NCBI GenBank assembly: GCA_964416895.1
Contig: CAYQGB010000003.1
Location: forward strand, 1-42,669
Source of the DNA: an uncultured Calditrichaceae bacterium
GTDB taxonomy: Bacteria > Calditrichota > Calditrichia > RBG-13-44-9 > J075
DNA length: 42,669 nt
Reading direction: 5' to 3'
The position numbers were made by a program, and so were the translations under genes. Positions 6,303 to 23,307 of this stretch are shown one piece after another. Position 1 is the first letter of the stretch, and the number at the start of each line of letters is the position of its first letter. The notes under the pieces were generated by a model. The model was not told the origin of the DNA. It saw only the letters and a list, made by a program, of their open reading frames with translations, and searched no databases.

Positions 6303-7066
6303 TTCTTGATCCCCCTTTCTTTCAGGATGTTCACGATCTTTTCGGCCACTTCTTCGGCGGAGCCTTCCAGCATTTCCGCCCCGGCGCCGGTTTCCGGCTT
6401 GAACATGCGTTCCACGGCGGAGCCGACCGGAACGGCGGCGTCACCGGCGGCGACCTCTTCCAGTTCGGTGCTGCGCATGGCCTGACGCACCCGGCTGACC
6501 GGAGCGTATCGGGGCGTTTGTCGCGCCGCCTGAATGCCCAGCACTGCGGGCAACCGGACCTCGAATTCGGCCATCAGGCCGCCGGCGTACTCCTTCTGCA
6601 CCGTGGCGGCGCCGTCGCTCAGGCTTACGCCGGTCACCACGCTCACGTGGGGCACATCCAGATAGTGCGCTAACAGCACGGCCACCTGACCATCCCGCTC
6701 ATCCACTGCCTGCACCCCGGTGAGGATGAGATCGTATTCCACCGATTGCAGGGCATTGGCGAAGGCTTTGGCGGCCACATGGGCGGGCACCCCGGGGCCG
6801 AAATCGCCGGTGACTTTGATCAACCGGTCGGCACCTTTGGCCGCTGCGGTGTAGAGGGCTTTGTCGATGTCCTCGCTCTCCAGGGCCACGGCGGTGACGG
6901 TAGCGCCGCTCTCCTCCTTCAGCAGAAGGGCCTCTTCCAGAGCGTGATCATCAAACTCGTTGATCTTGTACTTCAGCCAGTCCCGATTGAGATCTTTGCC
7001 GGACTCATCCAGCTCCAGCTCTTCCACCAGATCCGGCACCTGCCGTAATAGAACCACGATATTCAT
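6299..7066 (-). CDS. etfB: electron transfer flavoprotein beta subunit
   Basis: MNIVVLLRQVPDLVEELELD...YKINEFDDHALEEALLLKE is classic EtfB/FixA. Confidence 0.93.
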   Translation of the reverse strand: MNIVVLLRQVPDLVEELELDESGKDLNRDWLKYKINEFDDHALEEALLLKEESGATVTAVALESEDIDKALYTAAAKGADRLIKVTGDFGPGVPAHVAAKAFANALQSVEYDLILTGVQAVDERDGQVAVLLAHYLDVPHVSVVTGVSLSDGAATVQKEYAGGLMAEFEVRLPAVLGIQAARQTPRYAPVSRVRQAMRSTELEEVAAGDAAVPVGSAVERMFKPETGAGAEMLEGSAEEVAEKIVNILKERGIKK

Positions 7067-7144: not shown

Positions 7145-7262
7145 GCGTATTCGTATTGCGTAATGCGTATTTTGTATTGGATTTCCCATCACGAGTTTCC
7201 CGTTCCATATTCCCAAATCCCCATTCCGCATTCCCCGGTTTTCCGCTACATTTCCCATTCCA
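7145..7262. repeat. 7-nt-periodic repeat tracts (CGTATTG/CGTAATG, then TTCCCNN)
   Basis: gcgtatt cgtattg cgtaatg cgtattt tgtattg followed by atttccc atcacga gtttccc gttccat attccca aatcccc attccgc attcccc. The tract runs into the last codons of the radical SAM gene. Confidence 0.6.
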
Positions 7263-8346
7263 CCATACGCCCGGCCATCGTTCGCCGATGAATTTCCGGT
7301 AGCAGGCGAATCCCCTCTTCAAAATCCACGATGCGGTTGATCAGGTAAAACAGATACATGGTGGTCAGCCAGTTGGTGAATTCCTGCTTGCTTCCCAGAT
7401 GTTTACGCAGGTTGAGCATGACCCAGGAAAAGTGCTCCCAGGTGTCAAAGCAGCTGTCACAATCCCGGTCGATGCCGGTGCAGCAACGCCGGGTGGTGCA
7501 GAAATCGGCGTTGTAGGCCCGGAAGTGGGGATTGTAGGGTTTGCCGTTGGCGATGCGCTCCCGATTGACCGGGTGATCGGCGGTGATGCTGGTGCATACG
7601 TCATATCCCCACCGCTCGTCGTAGAGCCAGCCGGTGGAGACCACTTCGGCGAGGTAGCGGGTCATCAGAATCCGGTCGGGGTAGCGCTCGATCATGCGCT
7701 CGATTTCCTCCCGCACCCGGTCAAAACCCTGCCGGTGATCCAGCTCCCCGCCCATCTGCTCCACATCCCCATAAAAGTTGAACAGCACCCGATTGCCGTT
7801 TTCCACGCACCGGGTAACCACCCGTTCGATCTCGTGGGTGTTGCCGGGGGTGACGGTGTAATACCAGAAAGCGCGGGGATCGTCCCGATAGTTGTTCAGG
7901 GCCCGGGCGAACACATCTACCCGCCCGCTTCCCCGAAGCTGTCGATCGGTTTCATGATCACCCCATACCGAGATGCCGATGGGCATGTTCTCGAACCCTT
8001 CGTAAGGGATACGCCGCAGGCCGTTGGTGGCCACGTTCATACGGAAATTGCGATAGATCTTGTGCAGTCGATCCAGCGCCAGGGTGGGTTCGCCCCCCAC
8101 CACGGTGACGAAATTGGTGCCCCGGGCCTTCTCCCGTTCGATGAAGGCCTCAAAAGCGGCCTCGTCCTTCCCCGGGAGGCGATGGCGATCCATGTTTTCC
8201 GCGAAGTAGTAGCATCCCACGCACCGAAGATTGCATACGTGGGTGAGATCCACGGAAATGGATCGCAACGGCCCCGCCTGCCGAATTTCGGTGTAGAGGC
8301 GGTTTAAAAACGGATCCTGCAGATATGTCCTTAGACTGTTTGCCAT
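7246..8346 (-). CDS. radical SAM protein of unknown function, Cys-rich C-terminal part
   Basis: CNLRCVGCYY (CxxxCxxC) and VVGGEPTL. Additional cluster-like cysteines CTTRRCCTGIDRDCDSC. No resemblance to the two LipS-like proteins outside the core. Confidence 0.85.
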   Translation of the reverse strand: MANSLRTYLQDPFLNRLYTEIRQAGPLRSISVDLTHVCNLRCVGCYYFAENMDRHRLPGKDEAAFEAFIEREKARGTNFVTVVGGEPTLALDRLHKIYRNFRMNVATNGLRRIPYEGFENMPIGISVWGDHETDRQLRGSGRVDVFARALNNYRDDPRAFWYYTVTPGNTHEIERVVTRCVENGNRVLFNFYGDVEQMGGELDHRQGFDRVREEIERMIERYPDRILMTRYLAEVVSTGWLYDERWGYDVCTSITADHPVNRERIANGKPYNPHFRAYNADFCTTRRCCTGIDRDCDSCFDTWEHFSWVMLNLRKHLGSKQEFTNWLTTMYLFYLINRIVDFEEGIRLLPEIHRRTMAGRMVEWEM

Positions 8347-8366
8347 AGTCGGATTCCGGGAAAATT

Positions 8367-8432
8367 GCGTATTGCGTAGTTCGTATTGCGTAGAAAAGGA
8401 TGAACTTACGCAATACGCAATACGAAATACGC
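8367..8432. repeat. long imperfect inverted repeat built from TACGCAA-type heptamers
   Basis: gcgtattgcgtagttcgtattgcgta (8367-8392) pairs with tacgcaatacgcaatacgaaatacgc (8407-8432) at 23 of 26 positions, with a 14-nt loop. Abuts the stop codon of the upstream gene. Confidence 0.85.
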
Positions 8433-9548
8433 CTACTCTCCGATAAACTCCTCTAATTGCAATTGCTCTACAATTTCCTTCTGATCTTCATCGTTGGGCA
8501 CGAAGGGATAATCCCGGTACGGCTCGCTGGGGCGATAGCTGCCGTAAGGGCGGGTGCAACCGGGTTCGCCGTTTTCGCCGGGACACCCGTTGGTCATAAA
8601 CGGCAACCCGGTGCGCACCACCTGCATGACCTGAGACAGGGGCGCTTTCAGGCGGATCAGGTTTCCGGCCTCGTCGAATTCCAGGCGATCCCGGGGCAAA
8701 TCGTAATCTTCCAGCAAACTCTTGACCAGTTGAATCCGCCGCCAGCGGGTAATGTGGGGCTTGGGATGTTCGCCCATCCGGGAATCCGGTTCGGGATTGA
8801 AACAAAACAGGTAAGCGAAGATCTGCCGACTCTTGAGGTAGTAGAACAGGTCAATGAGATCTTTATCGCTTTCCCCCAGACCCACCAGGGTGTGGCAGTT
8901 CACTTTCCAGGGGCCGAAGATTTCCCGGGACCAGTGGATGACGTCCCAGTAGTTCTGCCATTTCAATCCCCCCTGGGGCACATTGGTGCGGCGCTGAACG
9001 AAAACCTCCTCGGTGACCGCATCCAGTCCCACGCCGATCATATCCACCCCCAGCGCTTTGAAGGTCTTCAGCCGGTCGTAATTCAGCGTGGGGGGCGCCA
9101 CCAGGATGGACAGAGGCGTTTTCACTTTTTTCCGAATTCTCTCCGTGATGTCTGCCGTATCCCGATAGGCGTGCCCGTGGGTGACCATGGAGATGCACAG
9201 CCGGGTCAGCCGATCCTGATATTCCGCCATGCGCTCCACCAGCAGATCGGTTTCCACCAGGGGCCAGTCCACCCGGATGAAGGATTTCTCCTCGTATCGC
9301 CCCGGGCGGGTGCGGGCCAGGCCGCAGTAGGCGCAATCGGAAAAGCAGCCCTGCTCGTAGTTCAGCAGGATGTTGATCCCGCCGAACTCGAACCGGCGGG
9401 CGAATCGCCCGGAGATCAACCGCAGGGCGATAGCGCTGGCGCTGCTGATGCGCACATAATCCGGGCTGATTTGAAGCGGCTCCTGAACGCACGGTTCCGC
9501 GAGGGGGATGTTGCCGGAGATGAGTCGGTCAGGGTTTATGCGAGACAT
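8433..9548 (-). CDS. lipS1: radical SAM protein, BioB/LipA-like fold; LipS1-like lipoyl synthase component (which LipS it is remains tentative)
   Basis: CFSDCAYCGLAR radical SAM motif and GLGESDKDL as in the BioB/ThiH/HydE class. Extra Cys pairs near the C-terminus (NGCPGENGEPGC). Flanks the LplA-type ligase, as in sHdr-associated lipoylation loci as I recall them. Confidence 0.7.
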   Translation of the reverse strand: MSRINPDRLISGNIPLAEPCVQEPLQISPDYVRISSASAIALRLISGRFARRFEFGGINILLNYEQGCFSDCAYCGLARTRPGRYEEKSFIRVDWPLVETDLLVERMAEYQDRLTRLCISMVTHGHAYRDTADITERIRKKVKTPLSILVAPPTLNYDRLKTFKALGVDMIGVGLDAVTEEVFVQRRTNVPQGGLKWQNYWDVIHWSREIFGPWKVNCHTLVGLGESDKDLIDLFYYLKSRQIFAYLFCFNPEPDSRMGEHPKPHITRWRRIQLVKSLLEDYDLPRDRLEFDEAGNLIRLKAPLSQVMQVVRTGLPFMTNGCPGENGEPGCTRPYGSYRPSEPYRDYPFVPNDEDQKEIVEQLQLEEFIGE

Positions 9549-9579
9549 AGAACGCTGTTCCTCCTGTGGGATTTACACC

Positions 9580-10719
9580 TCATGCGGTTTGGGATACCTT
9601 CGGGTAGTAACAGGAGCCCCGGTAGGTAAAATGGTGCTCCATACGGGCGCTGCGGGCGGCTTTCCAGATGGCTTCGGCGATGGCCCCGGCAGGAAGGGGA
9701 GCGGCAGCTTGATTCTGAGCCGGAAATGCCTTCAGGGCGTTTTCGACCTCGCTCTCGATGGAGGCTCGATCCAGCGGGCTCCATTTCAGCCGGGATTCGA
9801 TGTGGCGAAAGGCCGCCTCATGGTCCAGGAAATCCCCGGTGATGAGCACGCTTTTGATGGTTTCGCCTTTGAGGGCGATATACACCCGGAGCAGTCCGGC
9901 GGGGGTTTTCTTCAGGCTCATGCCGGTCATATCTGCCTGGGGGGAATTCTGAAACAGCCATTCTTCCCGGCGATATTTCTCCCGGGCCAGTCGCTCGATG
10001 GCCGCGCGTTCTTCGGTAGAGATGGGGGTGGGCTGGAGTGTCATCTGAAAAAGCCGTTCAAAACTCCCGGCGATGCGGGTGCGAATCTCACCCACACTAA
10101 CCTTGCGCCCCAGTTCCCGGGAAACGGTGGTCAGCCGCTGGCGCACGCTGCGGATCATCACCCGATCGGAATATTTTTCCCGGGGAATGTTCAGCACTTT
10201 TAGCATCAGAGGAATATCCAGATCCACCAGCAAACTGGCGTGAAACAGCAGGGCGCCATGGGGATCGTAGTACACCCCCAGCCCGGCGATTTTGCGCCCG
10301 TTTACTTCCAGATCGTTTTTGGGGCGAAAGCGAGCTTCAATGCCCAGTTCCCGCAGGGCCTGAATCAGCGGCCCGGAAAAGCGCCGATAGGCTTCCGCCG
10401 GATGGGCCAGCGCCGGATCCGGCGCGGTGCTCAGGGTCAGGCACACGCCCAGCTGATCTTCCCCCATGAGGATGGCGCCGCCGCCGGTGGGTCGCCGCCC
10501 GATCTGCACCCCCAGTCGCCGACAGTTTTCCAGATGCAACTCCGCTTCCATATTCTGGAATCGCCCCACCAGAGCACAATGGGAACGGTAGGTGTACAGC
10601 CGCAGGGTCGGCTCCGGGCGAGGATGCTGCACCGGATAGTAGCGCATCAGAAATTCGTCGGTTGCCAGCCCGTAGTCGGCGGAGACCTGATCTTCTTCGA
10701 TGTAACGCCAGGGAACCAT
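9580..10719 (-). CDS. lipoate-protein ligase, LplA family, fused catalytic plus accessory domains (sLpl(AB)-like)
   Basis: RRPTGGGAILMGEDQLGVCL and NDLEVNGRKIAGLG (the catalytic Lys motif of BPL/LPL enzymes). At 379 aa it is longer than the catalytic domain alone. Confidence 0.85.
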   Translation of the reverse strand: MVPWRYIEEDQVSADYGLATDEFLMRYYPVQHPRPEPTLRLYTYRSHCALVGRFQNMEAELHLENCRRLGVQIGRRPTGGGAILMGEDQLGVCLTLSTAPDPALAHPAEAYRRFSGPLIQALRELGIEARFRPKNDLEVNGRKIAGLGVYYDPHGALLFHASLLVDLDIPLMLKVLNIPREKYSDRVMIRSVRQRLTTVSRELGRKVSVGEIRTRIAGSFERLFQMTLQPTPISTEERAAIERLAREKYRREEWLFQNSPQADMTGMSLKKTPAGLLRVYIALKGETIKSVLITGDFLDHEAAFRHIESRLKWSPLDRASIESEVENALKAFPAQNQAAAPLPAGAIAEAIWKAARSARMEHHFTYRGSCYYPKVSQTA

Positions 10720-10846
10720 GAGGGTATCAGGTTATATTAGTTGGACATTTTATGAGTTTTGAATTTGTTTCTGAATCAAATGAGTAACATTCCATGAACC
10801 ACGGTTAAGCGCACACATACCCGGTTCAAAGCACCGGGAACGTATG

Positions 10847-10887
10847 GCGTATTTCGCATTGCGTAATGGATCAACTACGCAATACGC
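10847..10887. repeat. TACGCAA-type heptamer inverted repeat
   Basis: gcgtatttcgcattgcgta ... tacgcaatacgc. Confidence 0.6.
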
Positions 10888-10949
10888 ACTTCTCAAACTG
10901 TCACGTGATAGTACACCCTCGATACCCCAATATCCTGATACTCCGCTTC

Positions 10950-11915
10950 CTAATGCCCACAGGAACAGGAACTTTCCGAAAACACCGGTTTCAGTCCTCT
11001 GGCGCGGGCATGGGCCACGATGCCCTCGGCCGGGTAGGCGATGCCGTTCAGACCGTAGTCCACCGCCGCCCGATCCACCGCCAGCTTGTGCTCCCCTAAT
11101 GGTCGGGCGCAGCCCAGCATCAGCAGGGTATCCGGCATCCGGGTGCGGGCTTCGTAAAAAAAGTGCTCGATGTCTTCCAGGGCCGGGGGAGCCACATGCT
11201 GCATGGGCGTGCCCACCAGCGGGGTCAAAATGACCAGCACCAGGGAGTGCACCGGATACCGGCGAATGAGATTCAAGGCTTGATATTCCCCCAGAAATTT
11301 CCCGAAATGCAATCCCAGGATGATGTGCGGGCGCACGCTGTGGCCGTATTGAGTCAGGTAGGCCAGAGAGCGGTCAAAATCCTCCACGGTGAGGTTCAGA
11401 TGATACACTTCCCGGATGGTGCGTTCATCTCCGATGATGTCCAGCATTACCCCATCCACACCGGCTTCTTTCAGACCTGCGGCGGTGGGTTCATCCACTA
11501 CTCCGCAGTGCACCATGATCCGCAGCCCCAGTTCCCGCTTGGCCCGGGCGATGTCCGGAAAGTATTTCTTCAGGGGCACCGCGCCGTTGGGCTGGGAGCC
11601 GCCGCTGATCAACACCCCGGTGGTGCCGTTCTCCGCCAGCCGCCGACACAGGTTGAACAGGCCCTCCCGGGGATTGAGCGCCACCATCGGCTCCAGAATT
11701 TTGGATTTGCAGTGCTCGCACTGAAGGGCGCAGGCGCTTCCGGTAAGGCTGATGGGGCGAAAGGCCTGGGGGGTCTGTTGTCGAAACTCCTCGGTCTGAA
11801 AGTGCTTTAAACCGGGAGCAAAAAAGTAGATCTCGTCGCAGAAGTTGTTTCGACGTACGGCGAAAGCGCGCTTGCGCAAGAAATCGACTTCCGGGGTTAA
11901 GACTTCGCCAACCAT
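10950..11915 (-). CDS. lipS2: radical SAM protein; LipS2-like lipoyl synthase component (assignment tentative)
   Basis: CALQCEHC radical SAM motif. Start moved to MVGEVLTPEV (ATG 11915, GAGGA about 8 nt upstream), giving a 19-nt overlap with lbpA. Second radical SAM flanking the ligase. Confidence 0.7.
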   Translation of the reverse strand: MVGEVLTPEVDFLRKRAFAVRRNNFCDEIYFFAPGLKHFQTEEFRQQTPQAFRPISLTGSACALQCEHCKSKILEPMVALNPREGLFNLCRRLAENGTTGVLISGGSQPNGAVPLKKYFPDIARAKRELGLRIMVHCGVVDEPTAAGLKEAGVDGVMLDIIGDERTIREVYHLNLTVEDFDRSLAYLTQYGHSVRPHIILGLHFGKFLGEYQALNLIRRYPVHSLVLVILTPLVGTPMQHVAPPALEDIEHFFYEARTRMPDTLLMLGCARPLGEHKLAVDRAAVDYGLNGIAYPAEGIVAHARARGLKPVFSESSCSCGH

Positions 11916-12346
11916 CCCCAATCCTCGTATTTCCGGATTTCCGCTTCGTACCATTGCCGCAGGGCCGATTCGCCGGTGAGCAGGAGGGGTTTCTCCTGCT
12001 CGAAGTTGGTCAGCCGCACTTCGATGAGCCAGCCTTCCCCGTAGGGATCGGTGTTGGCCAGCCGGGGATTTTCCAGCACCGCCGGGTTGACCGCTTCGAT
12101 TACTCCGGAAACCGGAGCGTTCAGGGCGCCCACGTGTTTTTCCGCTTCCACGCTGCCGAAGCTCTCGCCCCGCTTCAACGGCTTACCCGCCGATTCCAGT
12201 TGTATCACCACAAAGGCGCCTTTGGTCTCCTGTTCCAGGGGATCGATCCCGATGCGGGCGCGGTCGCCTTCTACCCGGAGCCAGAGATGCTCCCGGGGAT
12301 CGTAATACAAATCGGGATAGATTTCGTACTCGCGGATTTTGAACAT
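11897..12346 (-). CDS. lbpA: GcvH-like lipoate-binding protein (LbpA-type)
   Basis: Start at MFKIREYEIY. GcvH fold signature GSVEAEKHVGALNAPVSGVIEAVN with the lipoyl-Lys position. No gcvT/gcvP nearby. Confidence 0.85.
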   Translation of the reverse strand: MFKIREYEIYPDLYYDPREHLWLRVEGDRARIGIDPLEQETKGAFVVIQLESAGKPLKRGESFGSVEAEKHVGALNAPVSGVIEAVNPAVLENPRLANTDPYGEGWLIEVRLTNFEQEKPLLLTGESALRQWYEAEIRKYEDWGWLAKS

Positions 12347-12402
12347 AGCTCGCCTCATAAGATTGCGATTACCGAACAAATTCGAGAAAAGGGCAGGGGA
12401 GA

Positions 12403-12490
12403 GGAAACCGTTTAAACGGTTTCCGGATGTTTTTTTAAACCGTTTAAACGGTTTAAAATCCTCCCGCGTAAAACCGTTTAAACGGTTTTA
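12403..12490. promoter_or_regulatory. three copies of the perfect palindrome AACCGTTTAAACGGTT
   Basis: ggAAACCGTTTAAACGGTTTcc 12403-12424, ttAAACCGTTTAAACGGTTTaa 12435-12456 and taAAACCGTTTAAACGGTTTta 12469-12490. Centre-to-centre spacing 32 and 34 bp. Lies between shdrB3-like and lbpA. Confidence 0.8.
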
Positions 12491-13753
12491 CACCCCCATC
12501 GCCTCCACCACCAGCTCGATGATGTCCCGCACAATCAATTTGCCTTCATTACCGGTTGACTTTACCGCATCTTCAAACCGGGAAACCTCGTAGGGGCAGC
12601 ACACCGCCAGCACCTCGGCGCCGGTTTCCACCGCCTCCCGCACCCGGCGTTCGGAAAGCCGCTCCGCCACATGGTCGGCCATGAACCCGTCCAGCCACAT
12701 GCCCCCACCGCCACCGCCGCAGCAGTAGCTGTTCTGTTTGCACCGCCCCATCTCGATCAATTCTATCCCCGGAATGGAGGTGAGCATCTTCCGGGGAGCC
12801 TCAAACTCCCCGTGGTGCCGTCCCAGGTAGCAGGGATCGTGGAAAGTCACCCTGTAGCTCAGGGGCTTCTTGAACTCCAGTTGATCCATCAGGGGCGCCA
12901 GGAAGGTGGTATAGTGCACCACGTCGAACTCCCCGCCGTATTTGGGATATTCCTTCTTGAAGGCATTCAGGGCATGGGGATCGGTGACCAGAATCCGGTT
13001 GAACTTATATCGCTTGAGGGTGCGAATATTTTCCTCGGCGAATTCCTCGAACAGCCCCTTTTCTCCCGCCAGGCGCTGGGAGTCGCAAGAGCACTTTTCC
13101 TCCGGGCCGAGAATGCCGAAGTCGATTCCCAGCGCGTTCAGCACCTTTGCCAGCGCCCGACTGGCGTCGATTCCCCGGGGGTGATAGGAGGGATAGCACT
13201 CCACGAACCAGAGGATATCCGCCTGTTTTTTGGTCTTCATCAGGGGAACCGGCACTCCGGCGCCTTTGGCCCAGTCGGCGCGCTTGCGGGGGGATTCTCC
13301 CAGGGGATTGCCGTATTCAAAGGTGTTTTCAAACACCTCCTGAAGTTCGGCGGGAACGTTGCCGTCCAGCACCGCCACCTCCCGCACTGCGGGCATGATC
13401 TGGATCATGTCCACATTTTTTGGGCACACCCGCAGGCAGTTCATGCAGGTGGTGCATTTCCACAAATCCGCATCGTTGAACAGATCGATTCCCGCCTGCA
13501 CGTTGCGGTAAATCTTGCGGGGGCCGTAATCGCCGCCCACAATATCCACCGGGCACACCCCCACACACTGGGCGCACTGGTAACACCAGCCCAGCGACTC
13601 CCCGCCTTCCAGCGCGGTGATCTTATCCATCACCTCGGTTTCGTAATCAAAGATGGGGCGCTGGGTGAACATGCGGTTCCAGTCGCCGGTCAGTTCAATC
13701 CCATCGACAACGACTTTTTCCAGTTCCTGAATTTGGCTCTTATCCACCGGCAT
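12488..13753 (-). CDS. shdrB3: fused HdrC/HdrB-like (HdrD-like) Fe-S protein; sHdrB3-like
   Basis: CYQCAQCVGVCP and CTTCMNCLRVCP, then CCG-domain motifs (DPCYLGRH, YCCGGGGGG). The C-terminus STGNEGKLIVRDIIELVVEA is nearly the same as the Emo C-terminus. Confidence 0.85.
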   Translation of the reverse strand: MPVDKSQIQELEKVVVDGIELTGDWNRMFTQRPIFDYETEVMDKITALEGGESLGWCYQCAQCVGVCPVDIVGGDYGPRKIYRNVQAGIDLFNDADLWKCTTCMNCLRVCPKNVDMIQIMPAVREVAVLDGNVPAELQEVFENTFEYGNPLGESPRKRADWAKGAGVPVPLMKTKKQADILWFVECYPSYHPRGIDASRALAKVLNALGIDFGILGPEEKCSCDSQRLAGEKGLFEEFAEENIRTLKRYKFNRILVTDPHALNAFKKEYPKYGGEFDVVHYTTFLAPLMDQLEFKKPLSYRVTFHDPCYLGRHHGEFEAPRKMLTSIPGIELIEMGRCKQNSYCCGGGGGGMWLDGFMADHVAERLSERRVREAVETGAEVLAVCCPYEVSRFEDAVKSTGNEGKLIVRDIIELVVEAMGV

Positions 13754-14489
13754 GCTGTTGTTCCTCCGTATTGTACACGCCCAGCAGTCGGCGGGAAAAC
13801 TCCGCCAGACCGGGCATTACTTTGTTGAACTCCTGAGTCATGCGCAGGCGCAGCACAGTATACACGTAGATTACATACACGCAGGCCAGAAAGGCGTCCA
13901 CGCCGAAAGACCCCTCACCGATGACCTCGAAACCGGCGGCTTCGCCCACGTGGCGCACGAACGACAGCGCCTCTCCCAGCCGCAAATACGTTGCGCCGAT
14001 GCCTCCCGCCTCCAGATCGTACTCCTCTACCAGCACCAGGGGAAGCGCCCCGGTTTTGTTCCGGGGATCCCATATCCAGCGGGTCCACAGCCAGTGTTGC
14101 TTCGGGTGGGTGAAATGGAGCAGCTCGCTGCCCAGGTCGAAGCGCAGCGTTTCTTCCACGGCGGTGACCTGCCCGCAGAACCGTTCCAGGCGCTGATGAA
14201 CCTCTCCCGACCCGTAAAGCAGGTCGTTCATCCAGGCAACCAGCTGTTCTGCGCCGTGGGTCTCGATCAACCGGCGAGCCTTGCGGCGCACGGAAAAGAT
14301 TTGCCGCAGCAGGGAGTACAGGGCCTTTTCATCTAGATCGGGCAGCCTTTGCGGCGCCAGGGTTTCCTGGAAGTAGCGGCTTTTCACCTCCATGTCCTGA
14401 CAGATGCGGTACAGTTCCGCCACGGAAATCTTGCCCATGGCTTCTTTCATAAATTCCCGGGCGGAATCGATGTCCATAATTTGCGCCAT
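13740..14489 (-). CDS. conserved hypothetical protein in the shdrH position
   Basis: Good coding ORF between shdrA and the fused hdrCB, with a 14-nt overlap downstream. Start set to ATG MAQIMDIDSA because the longer GTG start lies inside a REP hairpin. No recognisable motif. Confidence 0.55.
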   Translation of the reverse strand: MAQIMDIDSAREFMKEAMGKISVAELYRICQDMEVKSRYFQETLAPQRLPDLDEKALYSLLRQIFSVRRKARRLIETHGAEQLVAWMNDLLYGSGEVHQRLERFCGQVTAVEETLRFDLGSELLHFTHPKQHWLWTRWIWDPRNKTGALPLVLVEEYDLEAGGIGATYLRLGEALSFVRHVGEAAGFEVIGEGSFGVDAFLACVYVIYVYTVLRLRMTQEFNKVMPGLAEFSRRLLGVYNTEEQQHAGG

Positions 14490-14558
14490 AGCTACCCGAT
14501 GGTTTTTACTGGCAAATTCTGATGCCTTGAGGCAAAAGGCTGCCCCGGTTAACTTTCC

Positions 14559-14850
14559 GGTCACCTTTCGACAAGCTCAGGGTGACCGATCCGGGTCATG
14601 CTGAGCCTGTCGAAGCATGACCGCTTCGGGTTATCCTTAGCCCGTTTCATAATTGCTTGTAGGGTTTCAAAACACAGCTTTTCCGCCTCCTTCCACCGCT
14701 CCTGCGGTGGAAGGAAGAGAAGGCGCTCCCGCGCCTACCTATTCTTCCACCTAACCCTACAAGAATTACTGAAATAGACCACTTAGCTTGTTGAAGCATG
14801 AGCGCTCCGGGTTATCCGGGGCTGCTGAGCCTGTCGAAGCATGCCCCCCG
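14559..14850. repeat. nested REP/MITE-like palindromic element inside the shdr operon
   Basis: Hairpins GGTCACC-ttcgacaagctca-GGTGACC (14559-14587), GGTCATGC-tgagcctgtcgaa-GCATGACC (14594-14622) and a third at 14817-14848. Outer inverted repeat cttgtagggtt (14655-14665) / aaccctacaag (14752-14762) around the central hairpin ccttccaccgc-tcct-gcggtggaagg. Confidence 0.75.
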
Positions 14851-14914
14851 CTCCTGAAATTCCCTTCGCTTCTCGCCCTGCCCGCCTGGGGTTAGCAGGT
14901 TATCGCCACCCGAC

Positions 14915-15976
14915 TCAGGCCGATACCTCCGCCAGATTGCGCACGGTGCTGATGGCCTTCATGGCCGCCAGCCCGGCGGCGGAGATGCTGTCTTCCAGAT
15001 CGGCCGGCCCGGTGCAGGCCCCGGCGGCAAACACCCCCGGCACCGAGGTGGTAACCGTATCCAGCGGCCCGCCCAGCGTTTCGATAAAATTGTACTTGTT
15101 CTGCTTCAGACCGAAGATTTTGGCCATCTCCCGGGTACCCGCGCTGGGTTCCATGCCCACGGAAAGCACCACTATATCCATGGGAATTTCAAACGGTCGG
15201 CGCATGGTGGTATCTTCCCCCCGCACCAGCAGCTTATCCCCTTTCTTGAGGATTTCCGTGGCAATGCCCTTGATGTAGTTGACGTGATACTTCTCCTGCG
15301 CCGGCCAGTAGATTTCGTTTTCCCAGTAGCCGTACATCCGCATATCGATGTAGAAGATGTACACCTTGCAGTCGGGAAGCTGCTGGCGGATTTCGATGGC
15401 CTCTTTGGAAGCGATCCCGCAGCAGACTTTGGAGCAGTACTCATTCCCGATGCGCCGATCCCGGGACCCCACGCACTGGATGAAGCACACCCGTTCCGGG
15501 GGCTGCCCGTTGGACGGCCGCACCACCCGATGGGCTTTGAGCATCCGCTCGCAATCCACCAGAGTGATCACGTCTTCGTATTCGTAATAGCCGTACTTCT
15601 GGGTTTCTCGACCGGGATCAAAGTGCTGGAACCCGGTGGCGATGATCACCGCTCCCACGTTCACTTTTTCCGACTGTTTGGCGTTCTTGATGGTCACCGT
15701 GAAGTCGCCCACCTGTCCTTCGGCGGCCACCACGGTGGATTGCAGGCGCAACTCCACGTTGGGATTGTTCTCCACCCGGGAAATCATCTCGTTCATGGCC
15801 TCTTCCGCGCTGCGCAGATCCGGGGTCAGGGCGGCGTATTCCGCTTCGTCAGGAGTACCGCCTAAGCGATGGCGCTTTTCTACCAGAATGGCTTTATAGC
15901 CCAGATCGGCAATGCCCCGGGCCGCTTCCAGTCCTGCCGGGCCGCCTCCGATTACCAGAATGTCTTGACTAGGCAT
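14915..15976 (-). CDS. shdrA: sulfur-oxidation-type HdrA-like flavoprotein (short form)
   Basis: ILVIGGGPAGLEAA FAD fold. CFIQCVGSRDRRIGNEYCSKVCC is the HdrA [4Fe-4S] cysteine signature. Only 353 aa, with no inserted ferredoxin domains. Confidence 0.9.
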   Translation of the reverse strand: MPSQDILVIGGGPAGLEAARGIADLGYKAILVEKRHRLGGTPDEAEYAALTPDLRSAEEAMNEMISRVENNPNVELRLQSTVVAAEGQVGDFTVTIKNAKQSEKVNVGAVIIATGFQHFDPGRETQKYGYYEYEDVITLVDCERMLKAHRVVRPSNGQPPERVCFIQCVGSRDRRIGNEYCSKVCCGIASKEAIEIRQQLPDCKVYIFYIDMRMYGYWENEIYWPAQEKYHVNYIKGIATEILKKGDKLLVRGEDTTMRRPFEIPMDIVVLSVGMEPSAGTREMAKIFGLKQNKYNFIETLGGPLDTVTTSVPGVFAAGACTGPADLEDSISAAGLAAMKAISTVRNLAEVSA

Positions 15977-17168
15977 CTGCGTCCTCCCAGGTTAAGTATT
16001 CCTTTTCACCCTTCTTGATCTTCTCTACCGCGTCCTCAAATTCCTGCCATTTCTGCTTCCAGTCGATTCCTAACTTCTCGAAGAACGGTTTGTTATCCGT
16101 GTTGTGCCAGTGCAGTTGCAGCACCTTGTAGGGATGGGCGCCCATGGCCAGCGCCGCCATTTGCGAATCGGACATTACCGGAACCCCGACGTTCTTCCCG
16201 TGGGCCCGCCCGGCAAACTGACTCTGATCCAGCGTGGTAACGCAGCCGGTATCGTGGGTTACCACGATGTCCGGGTTGGCTTCGTTTTTCATCACTTCGA
16301 TTTTGCGCTGCACGGCAAAGGAGCGGGAGAAATCCCGGGACACCAGGATGTGCCGGAATCCAAAGCCGCAGCAGTCATACCAGGTGGAATAATCCGCCAC
16401 ATTCACCCCCAGCGCTTTCAGGGTACCGGTAACGATGGCCGACCGCTGTGCTCCGTAGATTTCTTCATCGTAGATGGCGTCCTCTTCCACCAACTTGTGA
16501 TAGTGACAGGCCGGGTGCACCGTGGCGGTGATGTGGCTCATGTCGATTTCCTGCCGGTCGGCGATGCGGTCCCGGATGGCATACACCCACTCGCTGTAGT
16601 GCACGATCTCTTCCGGCATAACCAGCTTTTTGCCCAGCCGCTCCATGATCTCCCGCACCTGGCGGCGCAGATCGTGATGGTGCAGCAGTTCATGGCGTAC
16701 CTCTTTGTAATGTCCGAAGCTGGTGCCGCAATGGATGATGGGAAAGTAGCCGGTTTCGTAGGCGGCGCCGAAGTTACGGGCAGCCACCGCCGCCTGGGCC
16801 GCGGCGTTGGAAGTGGCCGAGGCGTAATAATTCCAGGCAGTGCAGGAGGTCTGATCCCGGGGGTCGATATAATCGAAGCCCAGTTTCCGGTTGATCCAGA
16901 AAATCGAGGTGGAATATCCCGGAATGTGCCCGCACTGGCCGCAGCTTTTATGGTGCCAGGTGTGTTCCAGGGGAATCTTCTTTTTGCGCCCGTACTTGGT
17001 GGTTACCTCCACATACGGTTCGGGCACCCGCTGAACAATCAGTTCCCCCTCCTTTTCCAGTTGAAACAGAATATCGTGAAAATCCTCCGTGGGAGCCTCT
17101 TCCGGCGTGGTCTTGAATCCCGGAGTCTTCCCGGCTTTGATGACTTCTTCAACGGGGATATGGCTCAT
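15969..17168 (-). CDS. shdrB1: HdrB-like CCG-domain protein
   Basis: CCG-type motif WYDCCGFGF plus further conserved Cys. 8-nt overlap with shdrA. Sits between hdrC-like and hdrA-like. Confidence 0.85.
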   Translation of the reverse strand: MSHIPVEEVIKAGKTPGFKTTPEEAPTEDFHDILFQLEKEGELIVQRVPEPYVEVTTKYGRKKKIPLEHTWHHKSCGQCGHIPGYSTSIFWINRKLGFDYIDPRDQTSCTAWNYYASATSNAAAQAAVAARNFGAAYETGYFPIIHCGTSFGHYKEVRHELLHHHDLRRQVREIMERLGKKLVMPEEIVHYSEWVYAIRDRIADRQEIDMSHITATVHPACHYHKLVEEDAIYDEEIYGAQRSAIVTGTLKALGVNVADYSTWYDCCGFGFRHILVSRDFSRSFAVQRKIEVMKNEANPDIVVTHDTGCVTTLDQSQFAGRAHGKNVGVPVMSDSQMAALAMGAHPYKVLQLHWHNTDNKPFFEKLGIDWKQKWQEFEDAVEKIKKGEKEYLTWEDADA

Positions 17169-17213
17169 GGCTTACCCTCGCAATTTATATGATTGAATGG
17201 TTTCCTTTTGGGA

Positions 17214-17957
17214 TCAATCAAACGTGACATCGTCGTACCCGGCTTCCTCCAGGCGCTCTTCCATCACGTCTTGCAGGATCATAAACAGCCCCTCATCCAC
17301 CTCTTTGATCATGTCCATCACCCCGGTCATGTGCCAGATGAGGTACAGCTCGATCATGGTTTTCTCATCCACGTCCCAGCCGATTTCGGTGGTGTGCAGG
17401 GTTTCCGGGGGCAGCGCCCGACGCCAGAGCTCTAAGTTCTCGGAGATCTCATGCACGTGGGTACCCCAGTCGGGGAAGGCATCCGGTTGGAGCATATCCG
17501 GGGAAACCTGGGTTCCGGTGGACATGATTTTGTAGATGATCCGGCCGTAGCCTTCCAGAGCCTCCCGGGCGGTTTGCAGACCGTTTTTCACCGCCACTTC
17601 CCGCAGCAGGGTGATCAGCCCGCCCGGCGAATTCCCCCGGGGGCAGCGGTCACAGGAGAAGCACTGGGAACAATCCCAGATGCTGTCGTTCATCAGGGTG
17701 TACACCAGTTCCACGTCTTCCCGGGCGCAGGCCTGGGCGATCACCCGGGGACTGAAATCGTAGAAGCGCGCCGACGGGCAGGCGGCCACGCACACGCCGC
17801 ACTCATAACATCCGTAGAGCACGTCTTTATAGCGAATATCGGCCTTGACTTCTTCAAACAGCCGCTTTTTCTCCTCGTACGGCACCTCGGCATAGCGATC
17901 CTGAGATAGATCCAGCGGATACGTATTCAAAGCATGAGAATCCTGCCAGGCGGCCAT
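17214..17957 (-). CDS. shdrC1: HdrC-like 2x[4Fe-4S] protein
   Basis: CYECGVCVAACP and CSQCFSCDRCP. Confidence 0.85.
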   Translation of the reverse strand: MAAWQDSHALNTYPLDLSQDRYAEVPYEEKKRLFEEVKADIRYKDVLYGCYECGVCVAACPSARFYDFSPRVIAQACAREDVELVYTLMNDSIWDCSQCFSCDRCPRGNSPGGLITLLREVAVKNGLQTAREALEGYGRIIYKIMSTGTQVSPDMLQPDAFPDWGTHVHEISENLELWRRALPPETLHTTEIGWDVDEKTMIELYLIWHMTGVMDMIKEVDEGLFMILQDVMEERLEEAGYDDVTFD

Positions 17958-17982
17958 GGGGTATCTCCTTTTCCATTAAACG

Positions 17983-18453
17983 TTAGTCTTCGAAGCCTTC
18001 CAGATGCTCGCAGGCTTTGATGTCTTCTTTTTCGATCTTTTCCCGATAAGCCTGCACCGCATCATCGCCGGTGTGTAGCTCTTTCAGCTCTTCATCCAGA
18101 TTGGAGGGTTTGAGTTTGACAATCCAGCCTTTTTTGTACGGGCTGCGATTGAGCAGTTGGGGATCGGAGGCGAGCGCCTCGTTGACTTCCACAATTTCCC
18201 CGGAGATGGGGGTTTTGACCGGCCCCACCCACTTGCTGCTCTCCACCGTTCCGATGGGTTTTCCTTTGGCCCGTGTGGTGCCCACTTTTTTCACCCGGGC
18301 GTGCAGAATCGGCCCGGCCAGATTTTGAGCCACGTCGGTCATTCCCACGGTCACCGTGCCGTCATCGTTGGGCTGCGCCCAGGTGTGATCATCCACCGCA
18401 TAGTACAACTGTTTCAGGATCACACACCCTCGAATTTCTTCACGATCTGCCAT
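17983..18453 (-). CDS. lbpA: GcvH-like lipoate-binding protein (LbpA-type), second copy
   Basis: ATG at 18453 with GAGGAA upstream. GTVESSKWVGPVKTPISGEIVEVN carries the lipoyl-Lys motif. First gene of the shdrC1B1A unit. Confidence 0.85.
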   Translation of the reverse strand: MADREEIRGCVILKQLYYAVDDHTWAQPNDDGTVTVGMTDVAQNLAGPILHARVKKVGTTRAKGKPIGTVESSKWVGPVKTPISGEIVEVNEALASDPQLLNRSPYKKGWIVKLKPSNLDEELKELHTGDDAVQAYREKIEKEDIKACEHLEGFED

Positions 18454-18528: not shown

Positions 18529-18572
18529 CGTATTGCGTAATGCGTATTTCGTGAGGACATTACGCAATACGC
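18529..18572. repeat. TACGCAA-type heptamer inverted repeat
   Basis: cgtattgcgtaatgcgtatttcg ... tacgcaatacgc. The following acgctattcc is shared with the copy at 32746-32765. Confidence 0.7.
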
Positions 18573-18641: not shown

Positions 18642-19022
18642 TTAAAAATACATCACATGATCCGCATTCAACGCCAGATCGATGATGCTGGTGGCGCCCA
18701 GAATTTCCACTCCCTCGATCAAATCCTCTTTGGTCATGTTCCACAAATCCATGCTCTGCTGGCACACCCGCAGTTTGACCCCGGCTTCCAGAGCCTGATC
18801 CAGCAAGGTCTTCAGGGTGACATCGCTGGTGGGATCCAGTTGCACTTTTTCCGCCTCGCCTTTTTTCAACTGATTGGTGCCGTTCATGGTGAACCATACC
18901 ATCACATCCATCTCCATGGCTGCGGCGGCCATGGCGTAAAAAATCGGCGAGTACGTGCGGGTGGGGGTATCCACCCCGTGGGTTTGAATCACCAGAATCT
19001 TTTTGCCTTCCAGATCTTCCAC
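18642..19022 (-). CDS. DsrE/DsrF-like family sulfur-relay protein (126 aa)
   Basis: KILVIQTHGVDTPTRTYSPIFYAMAAAAM...VCQQSMD...GATSIIDL follows the DsrE/YchN pattern. GTG start with GGAGG 7 nt upstream. Confidence 0.75.
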   Translation of the reverse strand: MEDLEGKKILVIQTHGVDTPTRTYSPIFYAMAAAAMEMDVMVWFTMNGTNQLKKGEAEKVQLDPTSDVTLKTLLDQALEAGVKLRVCQQSMDLWNMTKEDLIEGVEILGATSIIDLALNADHVMYF

Positions 19023-19100: not shown

Positions 19101-19294
19101 CGTGCGTGATGCGTGATTATTTGCCTTCATTCGGTGTGTCCTAGGCTTACGAAAAACAGCCAAAACCCGATGACTTCCGCTTTATCTCTTGATACGTGAT
19201 ACGTGATTGTTTTTTACATATATGATTATTTTTTCACGCATTACGCATCACGTTTCACGCATCACGCATTACCATTACGCATCACGTTTCACGC
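19101..19294. repeat. CACGCAT/CACGTTT heptamer arrays in inverted orientation around an AT-rich core
   Basis: cgtgcgtgatgcgtgat (19101-), gatacgtgatacgtgat (19191-), AT core tgttttttacatatatgattatttttt, then tcacgcattacgcatcacgtttcacgcatcacgcattaccattacgcatcacgtttcacgc (19234-19294). Confidence 0.8.
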
Positions 19295-19635
19295 TTTTCG
19301 GTTTCTGCTTCGGGTAAATCATCTTCCAAAGAAATAGTGCAGGGTTTGAAGGGATCGGCCAGCACGATCAGGTGCTGCCGTTCCCAATCCCATTCCTCCT
19401 CCAGTTCCATCATGTGCTCGTGCAGATCCTCTTTCCGGGGGCTGTGGCGGATCAGCCGCAGCTTTACCGGGGTCTGGTTTGCGTTGACCTCCAGAACTTC
19501 CAACAGCAGCCATTCCCCGGCTTTTTCCTGATAAATCCGGGCAATGTCCGGCAATGTGAGAATTTTGTCTTCCCATTCACTCACGGCTTTCCCATCAGCT
19601 CTGGGCAATTTTTTCTGACAGAGTGGCAATGGCAT
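19282..19635 (-). CDS. small hypothetical protein (alternative GTG start at 19584)
   Basis: ORF directly after the second ligase gene. The ATG start overlaps that gene by 41 nt, whereas the GTG at 19584 lies 11 nt after its stop. Acidic, no motif. Its last codons lie in the heptamer repeat. Confidence 0.45.
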   Translation of the reverse strand: MPLPLCQKKLPRADGKAVSEWEDKILTLPDIARIYQEKAGEWLLLEVLEVNANQTPVKLRLIRHSPRKEDLHEHMMELEEEWDWERQHLIVLADPFKPCTISLEDDLPEAETEKRET

Positions 19636-20674
19636 CTACCCAATCCGGAATGGTGACTCCGGGCGTTTGAATGCCTTCCTCCAGATAAAACTTTTGAATC
19701 CGACGCAACAGGGTGGAGCGGTTAGCCTTTACCCCCCGGAGGGTCTCTTCCAATTGCCGAATTTTCTCCTGGGGATAAAAGGTAAAATCTCCGGAAATAA
19801 GGATGTCGTCAATATGGTGGTCTCGCAGGCGCAGGGTAATGCGGATCAGGCCCCCGGGGGTTTTGACCTGAGTTTCCCCCACCCATACACCGCCGTGAAT
19901 TTTGACCGCCGGTCGGGCGTATCCCCCTTTGGAGAACAACCACTCCTCTGTGGCAAACTTCCGTTCGGTGTCGGCAATGGCCTGTTCTTCGGCCCCGGTC
20001 AGCTCTCCCACTTCCACCCGTTCGCCGAAAATCTTCTCGCATTCTTCCACATACAGCCGGATGACTTCTTCCCGTTGTGGAAGCGTGTTCAGTTCCTTCT
20101 TCATGGTGGTCATGTAATCCCGAAGGCCGGAATACACTTTGTCGCGAAACTTCTCATCCGGCACCCGCAGGATTCTGGCCATCAGATCGATGTTGAAGTC
20201 GAACATGAAATTGCCCACCAGCACCTCGGCCTGACCGATTCGGGCGGCGCCCAGACCGGCAATTTTACGCCCGGCCACCTGGATGTCGTTGATGGGGCGG
20301 AAGTAAGCCTCGATCCCCAGCCGCTTGTAGGTCTGAATAATGGGGAGGGCATGGAGGCGGAACCGTTCATCCACCCGCATGGGCAGTGAGGAAGGCGAAA
20401 ACACCCACTGGGTAAACAGTTGATCCTGATCCAGATATACCGCTCCCCCGCCGACTTCCCGGCGAACGATGGGCAAATCATGGGCCCGGCAAAACTCCAC
20501 ATCCACCTCTTTGGTGACCTCCTGGTGAAATCCAATGCAGATGTACGGAGCCGAGGGGGTAACCAGCAGGATGGTGTTGGGGCTTTGAGAATGAAAGGCC
20601 CGCGCCACGCCGTGATATACCGCCTGGGAACGTAGCGGCGGCACCGTGCCCATGTGGATCAGGCGAATGGCCAT
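19595..20674 (-). CDS. second LplA-family lipoate-protein ligase paralog
   Basis: VRREVGGGAVYLDQDQL and NDIQVAGRKIAGLGAARIG match the same motifs as the 9580-10719 protein. Confidence 0.85.
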   Translation of the reverse strand: MAIRLIHMGTVPPLRSQAVYHGVARAFHSQSPNTILLVTPSAPYICIGFHQEVTKEVDVEFCRAHDLPIVRREVGGGAVYLDQDQLFTQWVFSPSSLPMRVDERFRLHALPIIQTYKRLGIEAYFRPINDIQVAGRKIAGLGAARIGQAEVLVGNFMFDFNIDLMARILRVPDEKFRDKVYSGLRDYMTTMKKELNTLPQREEVIRLYVEECEKIFGERVEVGELTGAEEQAIADTERKFATEEWLFSKGGYARPAVKIHGGVWVGETQVKTPGGLIRITLRLRDHHIDDILISGDFTFYPQEKIRQLEETLRGVKANRSTLLRRIQKFYLEEGIQTPGVTIPDWVDAIATLSEKIAQS

Positions 20675-20871: not shown

Positions 20872-21402
20872 CTATATAAACAGCGACACATCTGCATCGG
20901 CGGCGTATTCCAGGAAGGTGGCCGCTCCGCCGATTTCACAGCCGTCTACAAAATCCTCTTTCTTGAAGCCGAATACATCCATGGTCATCTGGCAGCCGAT
21001 GAGACGCACGTCCTCCATTTCCAGACACATCTCCCGCAGTTCTTCGATGGTGGCCACCCCCTTCTTCTGGAAGGTCTTTTTCATCAGGCTGGTGGCCACG
21101 GATTCAAATCCGGGGAGATTGCTCATCAGCAGATTGGGGATGGGGAGGCTGACTTTCTGTAACGCTTCCGGGCCGAAAGGCAGCTTCATGGGCATGGCCG
21201 GATTTCCCACCGGAGAAACGGCGGCATCCAGTTTCTTTTTCAGTAAGGGAAGCCCATAAAAGGTGAAGAAAATGGCCACTTCCCAGCCCATGGCCCCGGC
21301 AGCAGTGGCGAGGATAAAGGGCGGGTACGCCCAGTCCAGGGTGCCCTTTGAGGAGATAAGCGCCAGACGACGCTTTCCGTTTTTCCCATTGTTCTGTGCC
21401 AT
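20872..21402 (-). CDS. DsrE/DsrF-like (peroxiredoxin-like annotation class) sulfur-relay protein, 176 aa, DsrE3-like
   Basis: LALISSKGTLDWAYPPFILATAAGAMGWEVAIFFTFYG ... IGCQMTMD ... GGAATFLE. This long DsrE-type protein is usually found next to tusA. Confidence 0.8.
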   Translation of the reverse strand: MAQNNGKNGKRRLALISSKGTLDWAYPPFILATAAGAMGWEVAIFFTFYGLPLLKKKLDAAVSPVGNPAMPMKLPFGPEALQKVSLPIPNLLMSNLPGFESVATSLMKKTFQKKGVATIEELREMCLEMEDVRLIGCQMTMDVFGFKKEDFVDGCEIGGAATFLEYAADADVSLFI

Positions 21403-22827: not shown

Positions 22828-23307
22828 TCATCCGCATCCACTCAGGGTTACCCGCACCGAACGCTGCCCGTGGAACAGTTCTCCGGTGTTGGTTTCGGCG
22901 ATGGCGTGCACCGGACTGGTTTCGGCCATCTTGATCCGGGTGCTGATGTAGGCCTTACCGTTGGCCGGGGTGAGGTGAAACTTTCCGATCAGCGGAACGG
23001 GGTTCTTCTGAGAAAGGATGTAAATGGTCTGGATGTATTGATCCGCCTCCATGGGAAAATCCACTTCCACGGCCACGGGAACGGTGGCGCCGTTTTCGGC
23101 CAATTCCGGAGCGGAGACGCTCACCCGTTCGCGCTGCATGGCCCGGTCTCCGAACAACCGCTGCATGGCCGCCTCGAAGCTTTCCTCGATGTAATGGCTT
23201 TCCCGGGAAGGGGATTGCTGCGCTTTCAGCCCGGAAGGGAAAAACATTATGCCCAGCCCGATCTTTCCCAGAAATATGACAAATTCCCGACGGGACAACC
23301 ACTTCAT
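22828..23307 (-). CDS. soxY: SoxY sulfur carrier protein
   Basis: Tat-like SRREF signal, AENGATVPVAV and a C-terminal ...VTLSGCG (swinging-arm Cys). Confidence 0.88.
   Translation of the reverse strand: MKWLSRREFVIFLGKIGLGIMFFPSGLKAQQSPSRESHYIEESFEAAMQRLFGDRAMQRERVSVSAPELAENGATVPVAVEVDFPMEADQYIQTIYILSQKNPVPLIGKFHLTPANGKAYISTRIKMAETSPVHAIAETNTGELFHGQRSVRVTLSGCG

Follow-up and report, generated by a model that had tools for sequence, protein, structure and literature searches.

The 42,669-nt stretch of DNA analysed here in full (the window; contig CAYQGB010000003.1 of assembly GCA_964416895.1, from an uncultured Calditrichaceae bacterium) carries on its minus strand a gene cluster which, judged from its sequence, constitutes the core genes for cytoplasmic sulfur oxidation by a type II sHdr-LbpA system in a Calditrichota genome. 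The cluster itself is known, and the window only adds another lineage, Calditrichota, to a widespread system. What we add is incremental: an EMO-type origin and a ligand signature for the cluster-binding domain of sHdrB3 (B3; the other subunits are shortened likewise), an sHdrC2-type N-terminus of the same protein, and an insertion-prone junction between shdrA and shdrH. Taken as a whole, the locus is best explained as a type II sHdr core in which a mosaic B3 would pass electrons to EtfAB, and EtfAB to Emo and menaquinone; we give this reading a probability of about 70%.

In minus-strand order the genes are lbpA-shdrC1-shdrB1-shdrA and, beyond a 422-bp spacer, shdrH-shdrB3; genes for lipoate assembly come next, and etfB-etfA-emo close the series. 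An earlier sequence-only reading of the window had proposed the core order lbpA-C1-B1-A-(REP)-H-B3, and this was borne out, with all genes on the minus strand and support from Pfam and NCBIfam; its coordinates, protein lengths and motifs were also correct, save for a slip in the sHdrA motif. The lbpA gene (17983-18453) encodes a lipoate-binding GcvH-like protein of 156 amino acids (aa) from the ATG at 18453 (Pfam GCV_H, E 4.3e-39). Its open reading frame (ORF) reaches upstream to a GTG at 18468, and the orthologs in the five Calditrichota loci L001-L005 are 156 aa long. The shdrC1 product (17214-17957) is HdrC-like, with two [4Fe-4S] motifs (Pfam Fer4_8 and Fer4_17); it is 94% identical to the L001 ortholog and scores 3e-24 against the NCBIfam HdrC models, under their cutoff. 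The HdrB-like shdrB1 product (15969-17168) matches Pfam CCG and, best among the HdrB models, NCBIfam HdrB at 3e-36; sHdrB1 is the catalytic subunit proposed in the literature.

The shdrA gene (14915-15976) overlaps shdrB1 by 8 nt and encodes a short, 353-aa HdrA-like flavoprotein predicted to bind flavin adenine dinucleotide (FAD) and a [4Fe-4S] cluster. Its alignment with the 349-aa Hyphomicrobium sHdrA of known crystal structure (6TJR, phmmer E 2.5e-91) spans the whole protein, including the CVGSRD...CSKVCC motif, whereas that with methanogen HdrA (about 650 aa) is confined to residues 102-351. Thus the protein has the size of about 350 aa, the FAD fold and the single CxGxRD...CSxxCC motif of short sHdrA proteins, with no extra ferredoxin domains. 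The short form with a single cluster had been recognised before. Its motif had been given with a CxxC start, but it reads CFIQCVGSRD, that is CxxxCxGSRD, and of these two cysteines 6TJR conserves the second only. The shdrH gene (13740-14492) encodes a conserved protein of about 250 aa that aligns with type I sHdrH at 25% identity (E 3e-10) and has no Pfam or NCBIfam match; its orthologs in L001-L005 have 248 aa. It overlaps by 14 nt with shdrB3 (12488-13753), which encodes a 421-aa fused HdrC/HdrB-like protein with two CxxCxxCxxxCP motifs plus CCG-domain matches.

Type II sHdr is defined by shdrC1B1AHB3 plus etfAB within a single syntenic cluster (PMC11094781), usually followed by emo (PMC11094781; PMC11582611). 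Sulfobacillus provided the first example of this arrangement, under the name 'hdr gene cluster II' (PMC4378227), and little is known about it (PMC11094781). In the window, shdrC1, shdrB1, shdrA, shdrH, shdrB3 and etfAB all lie on one strand in a single syntenic cluster with a span of at most 12 kb, and emo comes after etfA; because composition and order match the definition of PMC11094781, we take the cluster to be the published type II sHdr. The likeness extends to lbpA, dsrE3, a lipoate ligase and lipS1/lipS2. The window differs in the lipoate-assembly genes placed between shdrB3 and etfB, in a 310-bp repeat between shdrA and shdrH, and in having no counterpart of the extra gene that its closest relatives carry between C1 and B1. 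The lipoate block occurs at the same place in L001-L005 and in many Bacteroidota loci, and etfB directly follows B3 in most loci of Chloroflexota, Actinomycetota and Bacillota.

A genome scan with sHdrB1, using one genome per species, returned more than 570 relatives, and our statements on type II loci cover the best 80 of them. All 80 are type II loci with constant gene order, and their B1 proteins are 66-86% identical to the query. They come from Calditrichota, KSB1, Bacteroidota, Planctomycetota, Marinisomatota, Rokubacteria, Methylomirabilota, Deltaproteobacteria, Chloroflexota, Actinomycetota and Bacillota (Sulfobacillus, Alicyclobacillus), plus one archaeon. The nearest named homologs of the fused protein carry a Calditrichaeota label.

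Emo, sHdrB3 and their shared domain

The electron-transfer flavoprotein (ETF) genes etfB (6299-7066; Pfam ETF 2.9e-25, best PDB match the Methylophilus ETF beta subunit at 1.7e-40) and etfA (5340-6302; Pfam ETF and ETF_alpha) are followed by emo, whose predicted product is a member of the EMO/EtfD family. Emo has 695 aa from the ATG at 5121, with a GGAGGAG ribosome-binding site 7 nt upstream, and it matches the M. smegmatis EtfD solved by cryo-EM (9OJN) with a phmmer E of 1.7e-84. Residues 1-290 (4252-5121) contain five hydrophobic segments in the hydropathy plot, align to EtfD residues 45-332 and match the NCBIfam QmoC membrane part at 1.4e-12. Within this region, the haem ligands His78 and His241 of EtfD have their counterparts in His85 and His255, which do not vary among 44 orthologs; His85, His237 and His255 correspond to His87, His233 and His251 of the Syntrophus aciditrophicus enzyme (SaEMO). 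Emo thus has the five-helix NarI-like cytochrome b domain of the family with its proximal haem b histidines. The 'NarI-like dihaem-type' anchor proposed earlier stands as far as the fold and the haem histidines are concerned, but 'dihaem' is undecidable from sequence: His237, the equivalent of the distal twin-haem ligand SaEMO His233, is present in 22 of the 44 sHdr-linked Emo proteins, and the haem number cannot be read from it because MsEMO retains the distal histidine yet holds one haem. Type II systems may vary in their haem complement, and so possibly in how they couple to the proton gradient.

The remainder of Emo (residues 291-695; 3034-4251) carries two cubane motifs together with a linker and a non-cubane-cluster (NCB) domain, whose proximal cluster is His-capped and has the predicted ligands Cys587, Cys622, Cys623, Cys662 and His537. 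In all these features, as in the adjoining etfBA pair, it resembles the EMO/EtfD enzymes of S. aciditrophicus, where EMO is an ETF:(methyl)menaquinone oxidoreductase, and M. smegmatis. It differs from them in carrying Asp665 at the position of EtfD Cys712 and in lacking the four cysteines of the distal cluster (FeS4/D1), whose positions are taken by Asp463, Asn498, Asp535 and Ser538; FadF and DgcB are reported to lack the distal-cluster cysteines likewise. A further difference is that the presumed electron donor would here be a sulfur-oxidising complex, not acyl-CoA dehydrogenases.

Our alignments show that B3 and Emo are true paralogs. BLASTP aligned B3 with Emo residues 305-695 at 40% identity over 396 residues (E 1e-100), a similarity far beyond the shared Cys motifs. 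This agrees with the kinship suggested by the sequence-only reading, which saw two related HdrD-like modules in one locus, one soluble (B3, with a maximum 19-residue hydropathy of 1.15) and one fused to a membrane domain (Emo). Note that the two C-termini, there called almost identical, share 14 of the 20 residues quoted. Moreover, every one of the 43 other type II loci with both genes has such a pair, at 34-43% identity and E 1e-69 or better. Unrooted neighbour-joining trees of the cluster-binding domain recovered a separate bipartition for B3 (200/200 bootstraps) and for Emo (195/200); rooting with an sHdrB2 outgroup was unstable, the distances being saturated, and only the unrooted bipartitions were used. 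Since the paralogy is general across the loci and supported by these bipartitions, the duplication is older than the spread of the cluster, and we rejected the idea that the pair arose by recent duplication within the locus.

Membership of B3 in the GlpC, TfrB or lactate-utilisation LutB families was likewise rejected, the scores lying far below the cutoffs. B3 obtained 68.9 and 41.5 bits against the NCBIfam GlpC models (cutoffs 278 and 279.9) and 22.8 bits against LutB (cutoff 444.8), and its TfrB score was also far under the NCBIfam cutoff. A LutA structure was the second Foldseek match of B3, with a template-modelling (TM) score of 0.47 and E 9e-11, as against a TM of 0.77 for EtfD.

In the literature, B3 is described as 'a fusion of sHdrC2 and sHdrB2' with a single non-cubane cluster (PMC11094781). 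We compared B3 with type I loci, taken from metagenomes via P0121 and forming a single lineage (B1 82-96% identical to P0121). In this comparison B3 looks like a mosaic and not a simple fusion of these two subunits: its paralogy to Emo lies mainly in the linker and NCB domain, and its 56 N-terminal residues are sHdrC2-like. By BLASTP, residues 1-170 matched type I sHdrC2 at 31% identity (E 1e-24, the alignment beginning at residue 7-8) and the ferredoxin domain of Emo at 26% (E 1e-15). Residues 1-56 alone (13586-13753) matched sHdrC2 only, with an hhalign probability of 98.9% and E 1.1e-17; Emo has its membrane domain where B3 has this N-terminal extension. Extension and ferredoxin domain are thus shared with type I sHdrC2 (31% identity, E 2e-26), which differs in a C-terminal region of about 100 residues that is missing from B3. 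The ferredoxin core, residues 57-130 (13364-13585), holds the two cubane motifs Cys57-Pro68 (Cys57/60/63/67) and Cys100-Pro111 (Cys100/103/106/110). In hhalign it scored about equally well against sHdrC2 (1.3e-13) and the ferredoxin domain of Emo (1.6e-16), and the gap between its cubane motifs is short, like that of sHdrC2.

The linker and CCG/NCB domain, residues 131-421 (12488-13363), proved closer to EMO/EtfD than to HdrB-type proteins in both sequence and fold. As a whole this region matched Emo with an hhalign E of 2e-104. Residues 171-421 were 49% identical to the Emo NCB domain by BLASTP (E 3e-84) and gave no BLASTP match to type I sHdrB2; the profile of residues 175-421 matched Emo at 1.7e-96 over 241 columns and sHdrB2 at 5.8e-6 over 132 columns. 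Type I sHdrB2 has the canonical HdrB-type make-up, with both of its CCG motifs (C...CCG...CxxC) complete, and matches HdrB (151.7 bits) and SdhE models, whereas B3 matched no NCBIfam HdrB model at E<0.001 and has 'TDPHA' and 'CCPYE' in place of both CxxC motifs. In support of the sequence comparisons, the AlphaFold2 model of B3 had EtfD (9OJN) as its top Foldseek match in the PDB, at E 2e-22 and TM 0.77 over the whole protein, versus E 5e-9 and TM 0.45 for HdrB. B3 therefore shares its fold and NCB domain with EMO/EtfD proteins and differs from them in having no membrane domain but an sHdrC2-type N-terminal extension instead.

Mapping on M. smegmatis EtfD predicted one complete CCG-type site in B3, in keeping with the single non-cubane cluster expected of the fused subunit, with Cys308, Cys344, Cys345, Cys386, His260 and Glu389 at the proximal cluster. 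These ligand columns are conserved in 76 B3 sequences, and those of Emo in 44 sequences. The His cap, equivalent to EtfD His583 and SaEMO His534, was invariant in 76 B3 and 44 Emo sequences. In the same sequences the fifth proximal cysteine is replaced throughout, by Glu in 76/76 B3 and by Asp in 44/44 Emo, and the Cys-Pro-x-Cys pair of the distal cluster is absent from all of them. In MsEtfD, His583 completes the coordination of the proximal cluster and renders it non-catalytic; in SaEMO, His534 fills the coenzyme M site of heterodisulfide reductase, and ETF docks on the NCB domain through EtfB, with the FAD 12-13 Å from the clusters. Because of the His cap, the carboxylate replacing the fifth cysteine and the presence of the proximal cluster only, B3 is most likely an electron-transfer module and no disulfide reductase. 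By analogy with SaEMO, it may also dock ETF, on a surface that would be the counterpart of the one by which Emo accepts ETF.

The electron path and its alternatives

The type II system of the window would oxidise sulfane sulfur. DsrE and TusA proteins would hand sulfane sulfur to lipoylated LbpA, and the sHdr complex (C1, B1, A, H and B3) would oxidise the LbpA-bound sulfur. The electrons would exit the complex via B3, whose sHdrC2-type N-terminal extension, together with a ferredoxin domain probably of that type, would anchor it there. The soluble flavoprotein EtfAB would then ferry the electrons to Emo, the EMO/EtfD-family membrane enzyme, which would reduce menaquinone; we infer both the direction of electron flow and the docking of ETF on B3. 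That EtfAB and Emo pass electrons of type II sHdr to menaquinone has already been proposed (PMC11094781), so that the relay to the quinone pool via Etf suggested by the sequence-only reading agrees with the literature and is not new.

The mechanistic point is that B3 carries the type of cluster-binding domain found in Emo and not that of sHdrB2. In the type I sHdr model, the disulfide acceptor lipoamide feeds nicotinamide adenine dinucleotide (NAD+). Tentatively, and at somewhat less than even odds, type II sHdr may have arisen when an EMO-type, ETF-docking and non-catalytic NCB domain was grafted onto sHdrC2 and ousted the disulfide-reducing sHdrB2, which would have moved the output from a disulfide acceptor to an ETF shuttle between B3 (donor) and Emo (acceptor), ending at menaquinone. 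If true, this swap of NCB domains would mean that cytoplasmic sulfur oxidation was rewired from a disulfide acceptor to an ETF shuttle with a menaquinone end. At stake is how much energy many uncultured Chloroflexota, Actinomycetota, Bacteroidota and Calditrichota gain from oxidising sulfur. The ETF/Emo route would be directly testable, with the recently solved EtfD structure and the EMO and EMO-ETF structures (2026 preprint) as templates.

Several points weigh against this interpretation of B3 and its partners. Our literature search found no experiment on any type II sHdr system, nor on the organism. The comparison with type I draws on one lineage of loci only, and the AlphaFold2 model of B3 is of moderate quality (mean predicted local distance difference test score 76, low for residues 1-35 and near the CCG loop). 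Because the ferredoxin core resembles sHdrC2 and Emo about equally, neither the crossover point nor even a true origin by recombination is established. Moreover, about half of the B3 sequences keep two or three cysteines at distal-cluster positions (Cys186, Cys221 and Cys223 in the window), which makes a second metal site possible. Finally, the PDB matches of EtfA and EtfB mix bifurcating and non-bifurcating ETFs and do not point to either type.

Those retained cysteines also fit another explanation, namely that B3 is a plain fusion of sHdrC2 and sHdrB2 working as a disulfide (e.g. lipoamide) reductase, with EtfAB and Emo as an add-on or a parallel route. The published description of B3 says as much, the N-terminal half of B3 does match sHdrC2, and B3 occupies the place after shdrH where type I clusters have C2 and B2. 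We nevertheless consider this quite improbable: the NCB domain finds Emo, not sHdrB2, in BLASTP and at far greater length and significance in profile comparison, the HdrB models match sHdrB2 and not B3, and the invariant His cap sits in EMO at the substrate site of heterodisulfide reductase and in EtfD makes the cluster non-catalytic. Direct contact between B3 and Emo, as a heterodimer of paralogs or by docking of sHdr on Emo, with EtfAB serving another donor such as acyl-CoA dehydrogenases, would fit the paralogy itself, the direct relay that the sequence-only reading had left as an option, and the EMO/EtfD-ETF pairs known in beta-oxidation, but it is highly doubtful, since etfB and etfA lie between or beside shdrB3 and emo in 43/43 emo-bearing loci of many phyla, which argues for a dedicated ETF, the solved complex has ETF and no other FeS protein on the NCB domain of EMO, and the operon showed no gene for an acyl-CoA dehydrogenase.

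The structured repeat between shdrA and shdrH

The spacer between shdrA and shdrH measures 422 bp (14493-14914), against a median of 18.5 bp in 78 other type II loci and 63 bp or less in type I loci. A structured repeat of roughly 290 bp had been noted here from the sequence; it is real, and its structured part covers about 310 bp (14555-14865). As RNA, the whole spacer folds far better than shuffled sequence (z -6.6). It contains one type B and one type A unit that together form a 72-nt hairpin (14555-14626; ΔG -45.2 kcal/mol, z -7.5), a 141-nt palindrome (14640-14780; ΔG -68.6 kcal/mol, z -7.5) and two degenerate type B units (14782-14860). A second A/B hairpin pair, whose units come in the opposite order to those of the shdr spacer, is found at 27105-27195 (ΔG -41 kcal/mol, z -6.5); this intergenic region separates a gene for a sigma-54-dependent response regulator (27320-28672) from a YeeE/YedE-like gene.

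The exact 20-mer of the type A unit, GTCACCCTGAGCTTGTCGAA, was found in 14 stretches of 12 viral contigs (IMG/VR, L166-L179) in unrelated contexts, and blastn with the spacer returned short matches to Comamonas and Hymenobacter plasmids (NZ_CP054841.1, CP014769.1). These viral and plasmid matches place the repeat in a widely dispersed family of short hairpins. Some viral copies of GTCACCCTGAGCTTGTCGAA are arranged in tandem, and some have an inverted TTCGACAGGCTC as their partner. The core motif of the repeat was absent from 2.35 Mb of other shdr loci, and a literature search on the peptides read through the repeat (LSLSKH, FDKLR...) gave nothing relevant. Such a motif tends to give rise to spurious ORFs.

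The best reading of the repeat is an insertion of REP-like hairpins, specific to this lineage, at a permissive junction; it would not be part of the system, and at most it would modulate mRNA stability or read-through. Like repetitive extragenic palindromic (REP) elements and bacterial interspersed mosaic elements (BIME), it consists of imperfect palindromic units of about 29 nt, in both orientations, which form a mosaic in an intergenic spacer of an operon, and it is present in more than one copy in the window. It differs from them in that its core GTCACCCTGAGCTTGTCGAA occurs in unrelated viral contigs and that plasmids from other phyla match stretches of the spacer. The term REP-like refers to the architecture of the units, and we claim no sequence relation to enterobacterial REP.

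A functional role, as a terminator, an attenuator, a processing site splitting lbpA-C1-B1-A from H-B3 and the genes onward, or a small RNA, is unlikely. The great stability of the hairpins would suit such a role, as would the second copy in another intergenic region and the fact that 7 of the 78 other loci also have inserts at this junction. However, two relatives with B3 proteins 89% and 85% identical to that of the window have spacers of 29 and 143 bp without the repeat, which is therefore not required by the system. In addition, a consensus scan of the spacer revealed no U-tract terminator and no sigma-70-like promoter, Rfam gave nothing credible for the whole window at gathering thresholds or for the spacer at E<=1, and the viral and plasmid matches in unrelated contexts are typical of dispersed REP-like elements.

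The shdrA-shdrH junction seems to be a recurrent insertion site. In the seven other loci it measures 234-523 bp and its contents vary; the ORFs in it were identified by eye from the spacer sequences. Two loci (L008 8641-9161 and L031 12334-12856) have an ORF for a four-helix bundle resembling those of 23S rRNA intervening sequences, flanked by simple inverted repeats, and a third (L029 12319-12552) holds a decayed remnant of this cassette. Two more (L034 12285-12634 and L042 12293-12655) encode a small DUF2892-like membrane protein, and the last two (L056 and L057) contain other palindromes.

Neighbouring genes and other observations

A second variable junction lies between C1 and B1. The gap is 45 bp in the window (17169-17213), and spacers of up to 819 bp were seen in other loci. 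The extra gene of the closest relatives (L001 6081-6437 and L004 4953-5588) is a 114-aa C1-like fragment in one and a 211-aa nitroreductase in the other.

The lipoate-assembly block between shdrB3 and etfB (7246-12379, minus strand) comprises lbpA2 (11897-12379), lipS1 (10950-11954), the lipoate-protein ligase gene slpl (9580-10719), lipS2 (8433-9548) and a radical SAM gene (7246-8346), and its order is identical in L001 and L004. The LipS1 and LipS2 assignments lie under the NCBIfam cutoffs, the former just so (225.5 bits with a cutoff of 230, and 189.5 bits with a cutoff of 270). The radical SAM protein, located between lipS2 and etfB, has 366 aa (389-395 aa in relatives) and gave no curated family match, only weak SPASM/maturase-like ones. 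No gene for a LipT-like flavoprotein was seen in the operon.

On the other side of the core, the minus-strand genes before lbpA are, in order, a DsrE2-like gene (20872-21402), another gene for a lipoate-protein ligase (19595-20674), a 117-aa ORF, and dsrE3 (18642-19022), which encodes a DsrE3-type sulfurtransferase (Pfam DsrE 3.1e-21) and keeps its position just upstream of lbpA in relatives. Inverted arrays of ACGCATT/ACGCATC-like heptamers flank dsrE3 (18529-18571, 19103-19117 and 19232-19294). The array at 18529-18571 forms a perfect 14-nt hairpin, of a family different from the A/B hairpins, and the shdrA-shdrH spacer of L056 is filled with similar GCGTAAT-type arrays.

A few kb upstream of the cluster lie genes for SoxY, for an FCSD-like flavoprotein and for a 'Sulf_transp' protein of the YeeE/YedE family (22828-23307, 24183-25532 and 25616-26809). 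A 2024 paper reported SoxT (YeeE-like) transporters to be absent from type II sHdr genomes. Finally, a 1432-aa ORF on the plus strand (37669-41967) is located in a stretch that stands out by higher G+C content (0.61-0.66) and positive GC skew.

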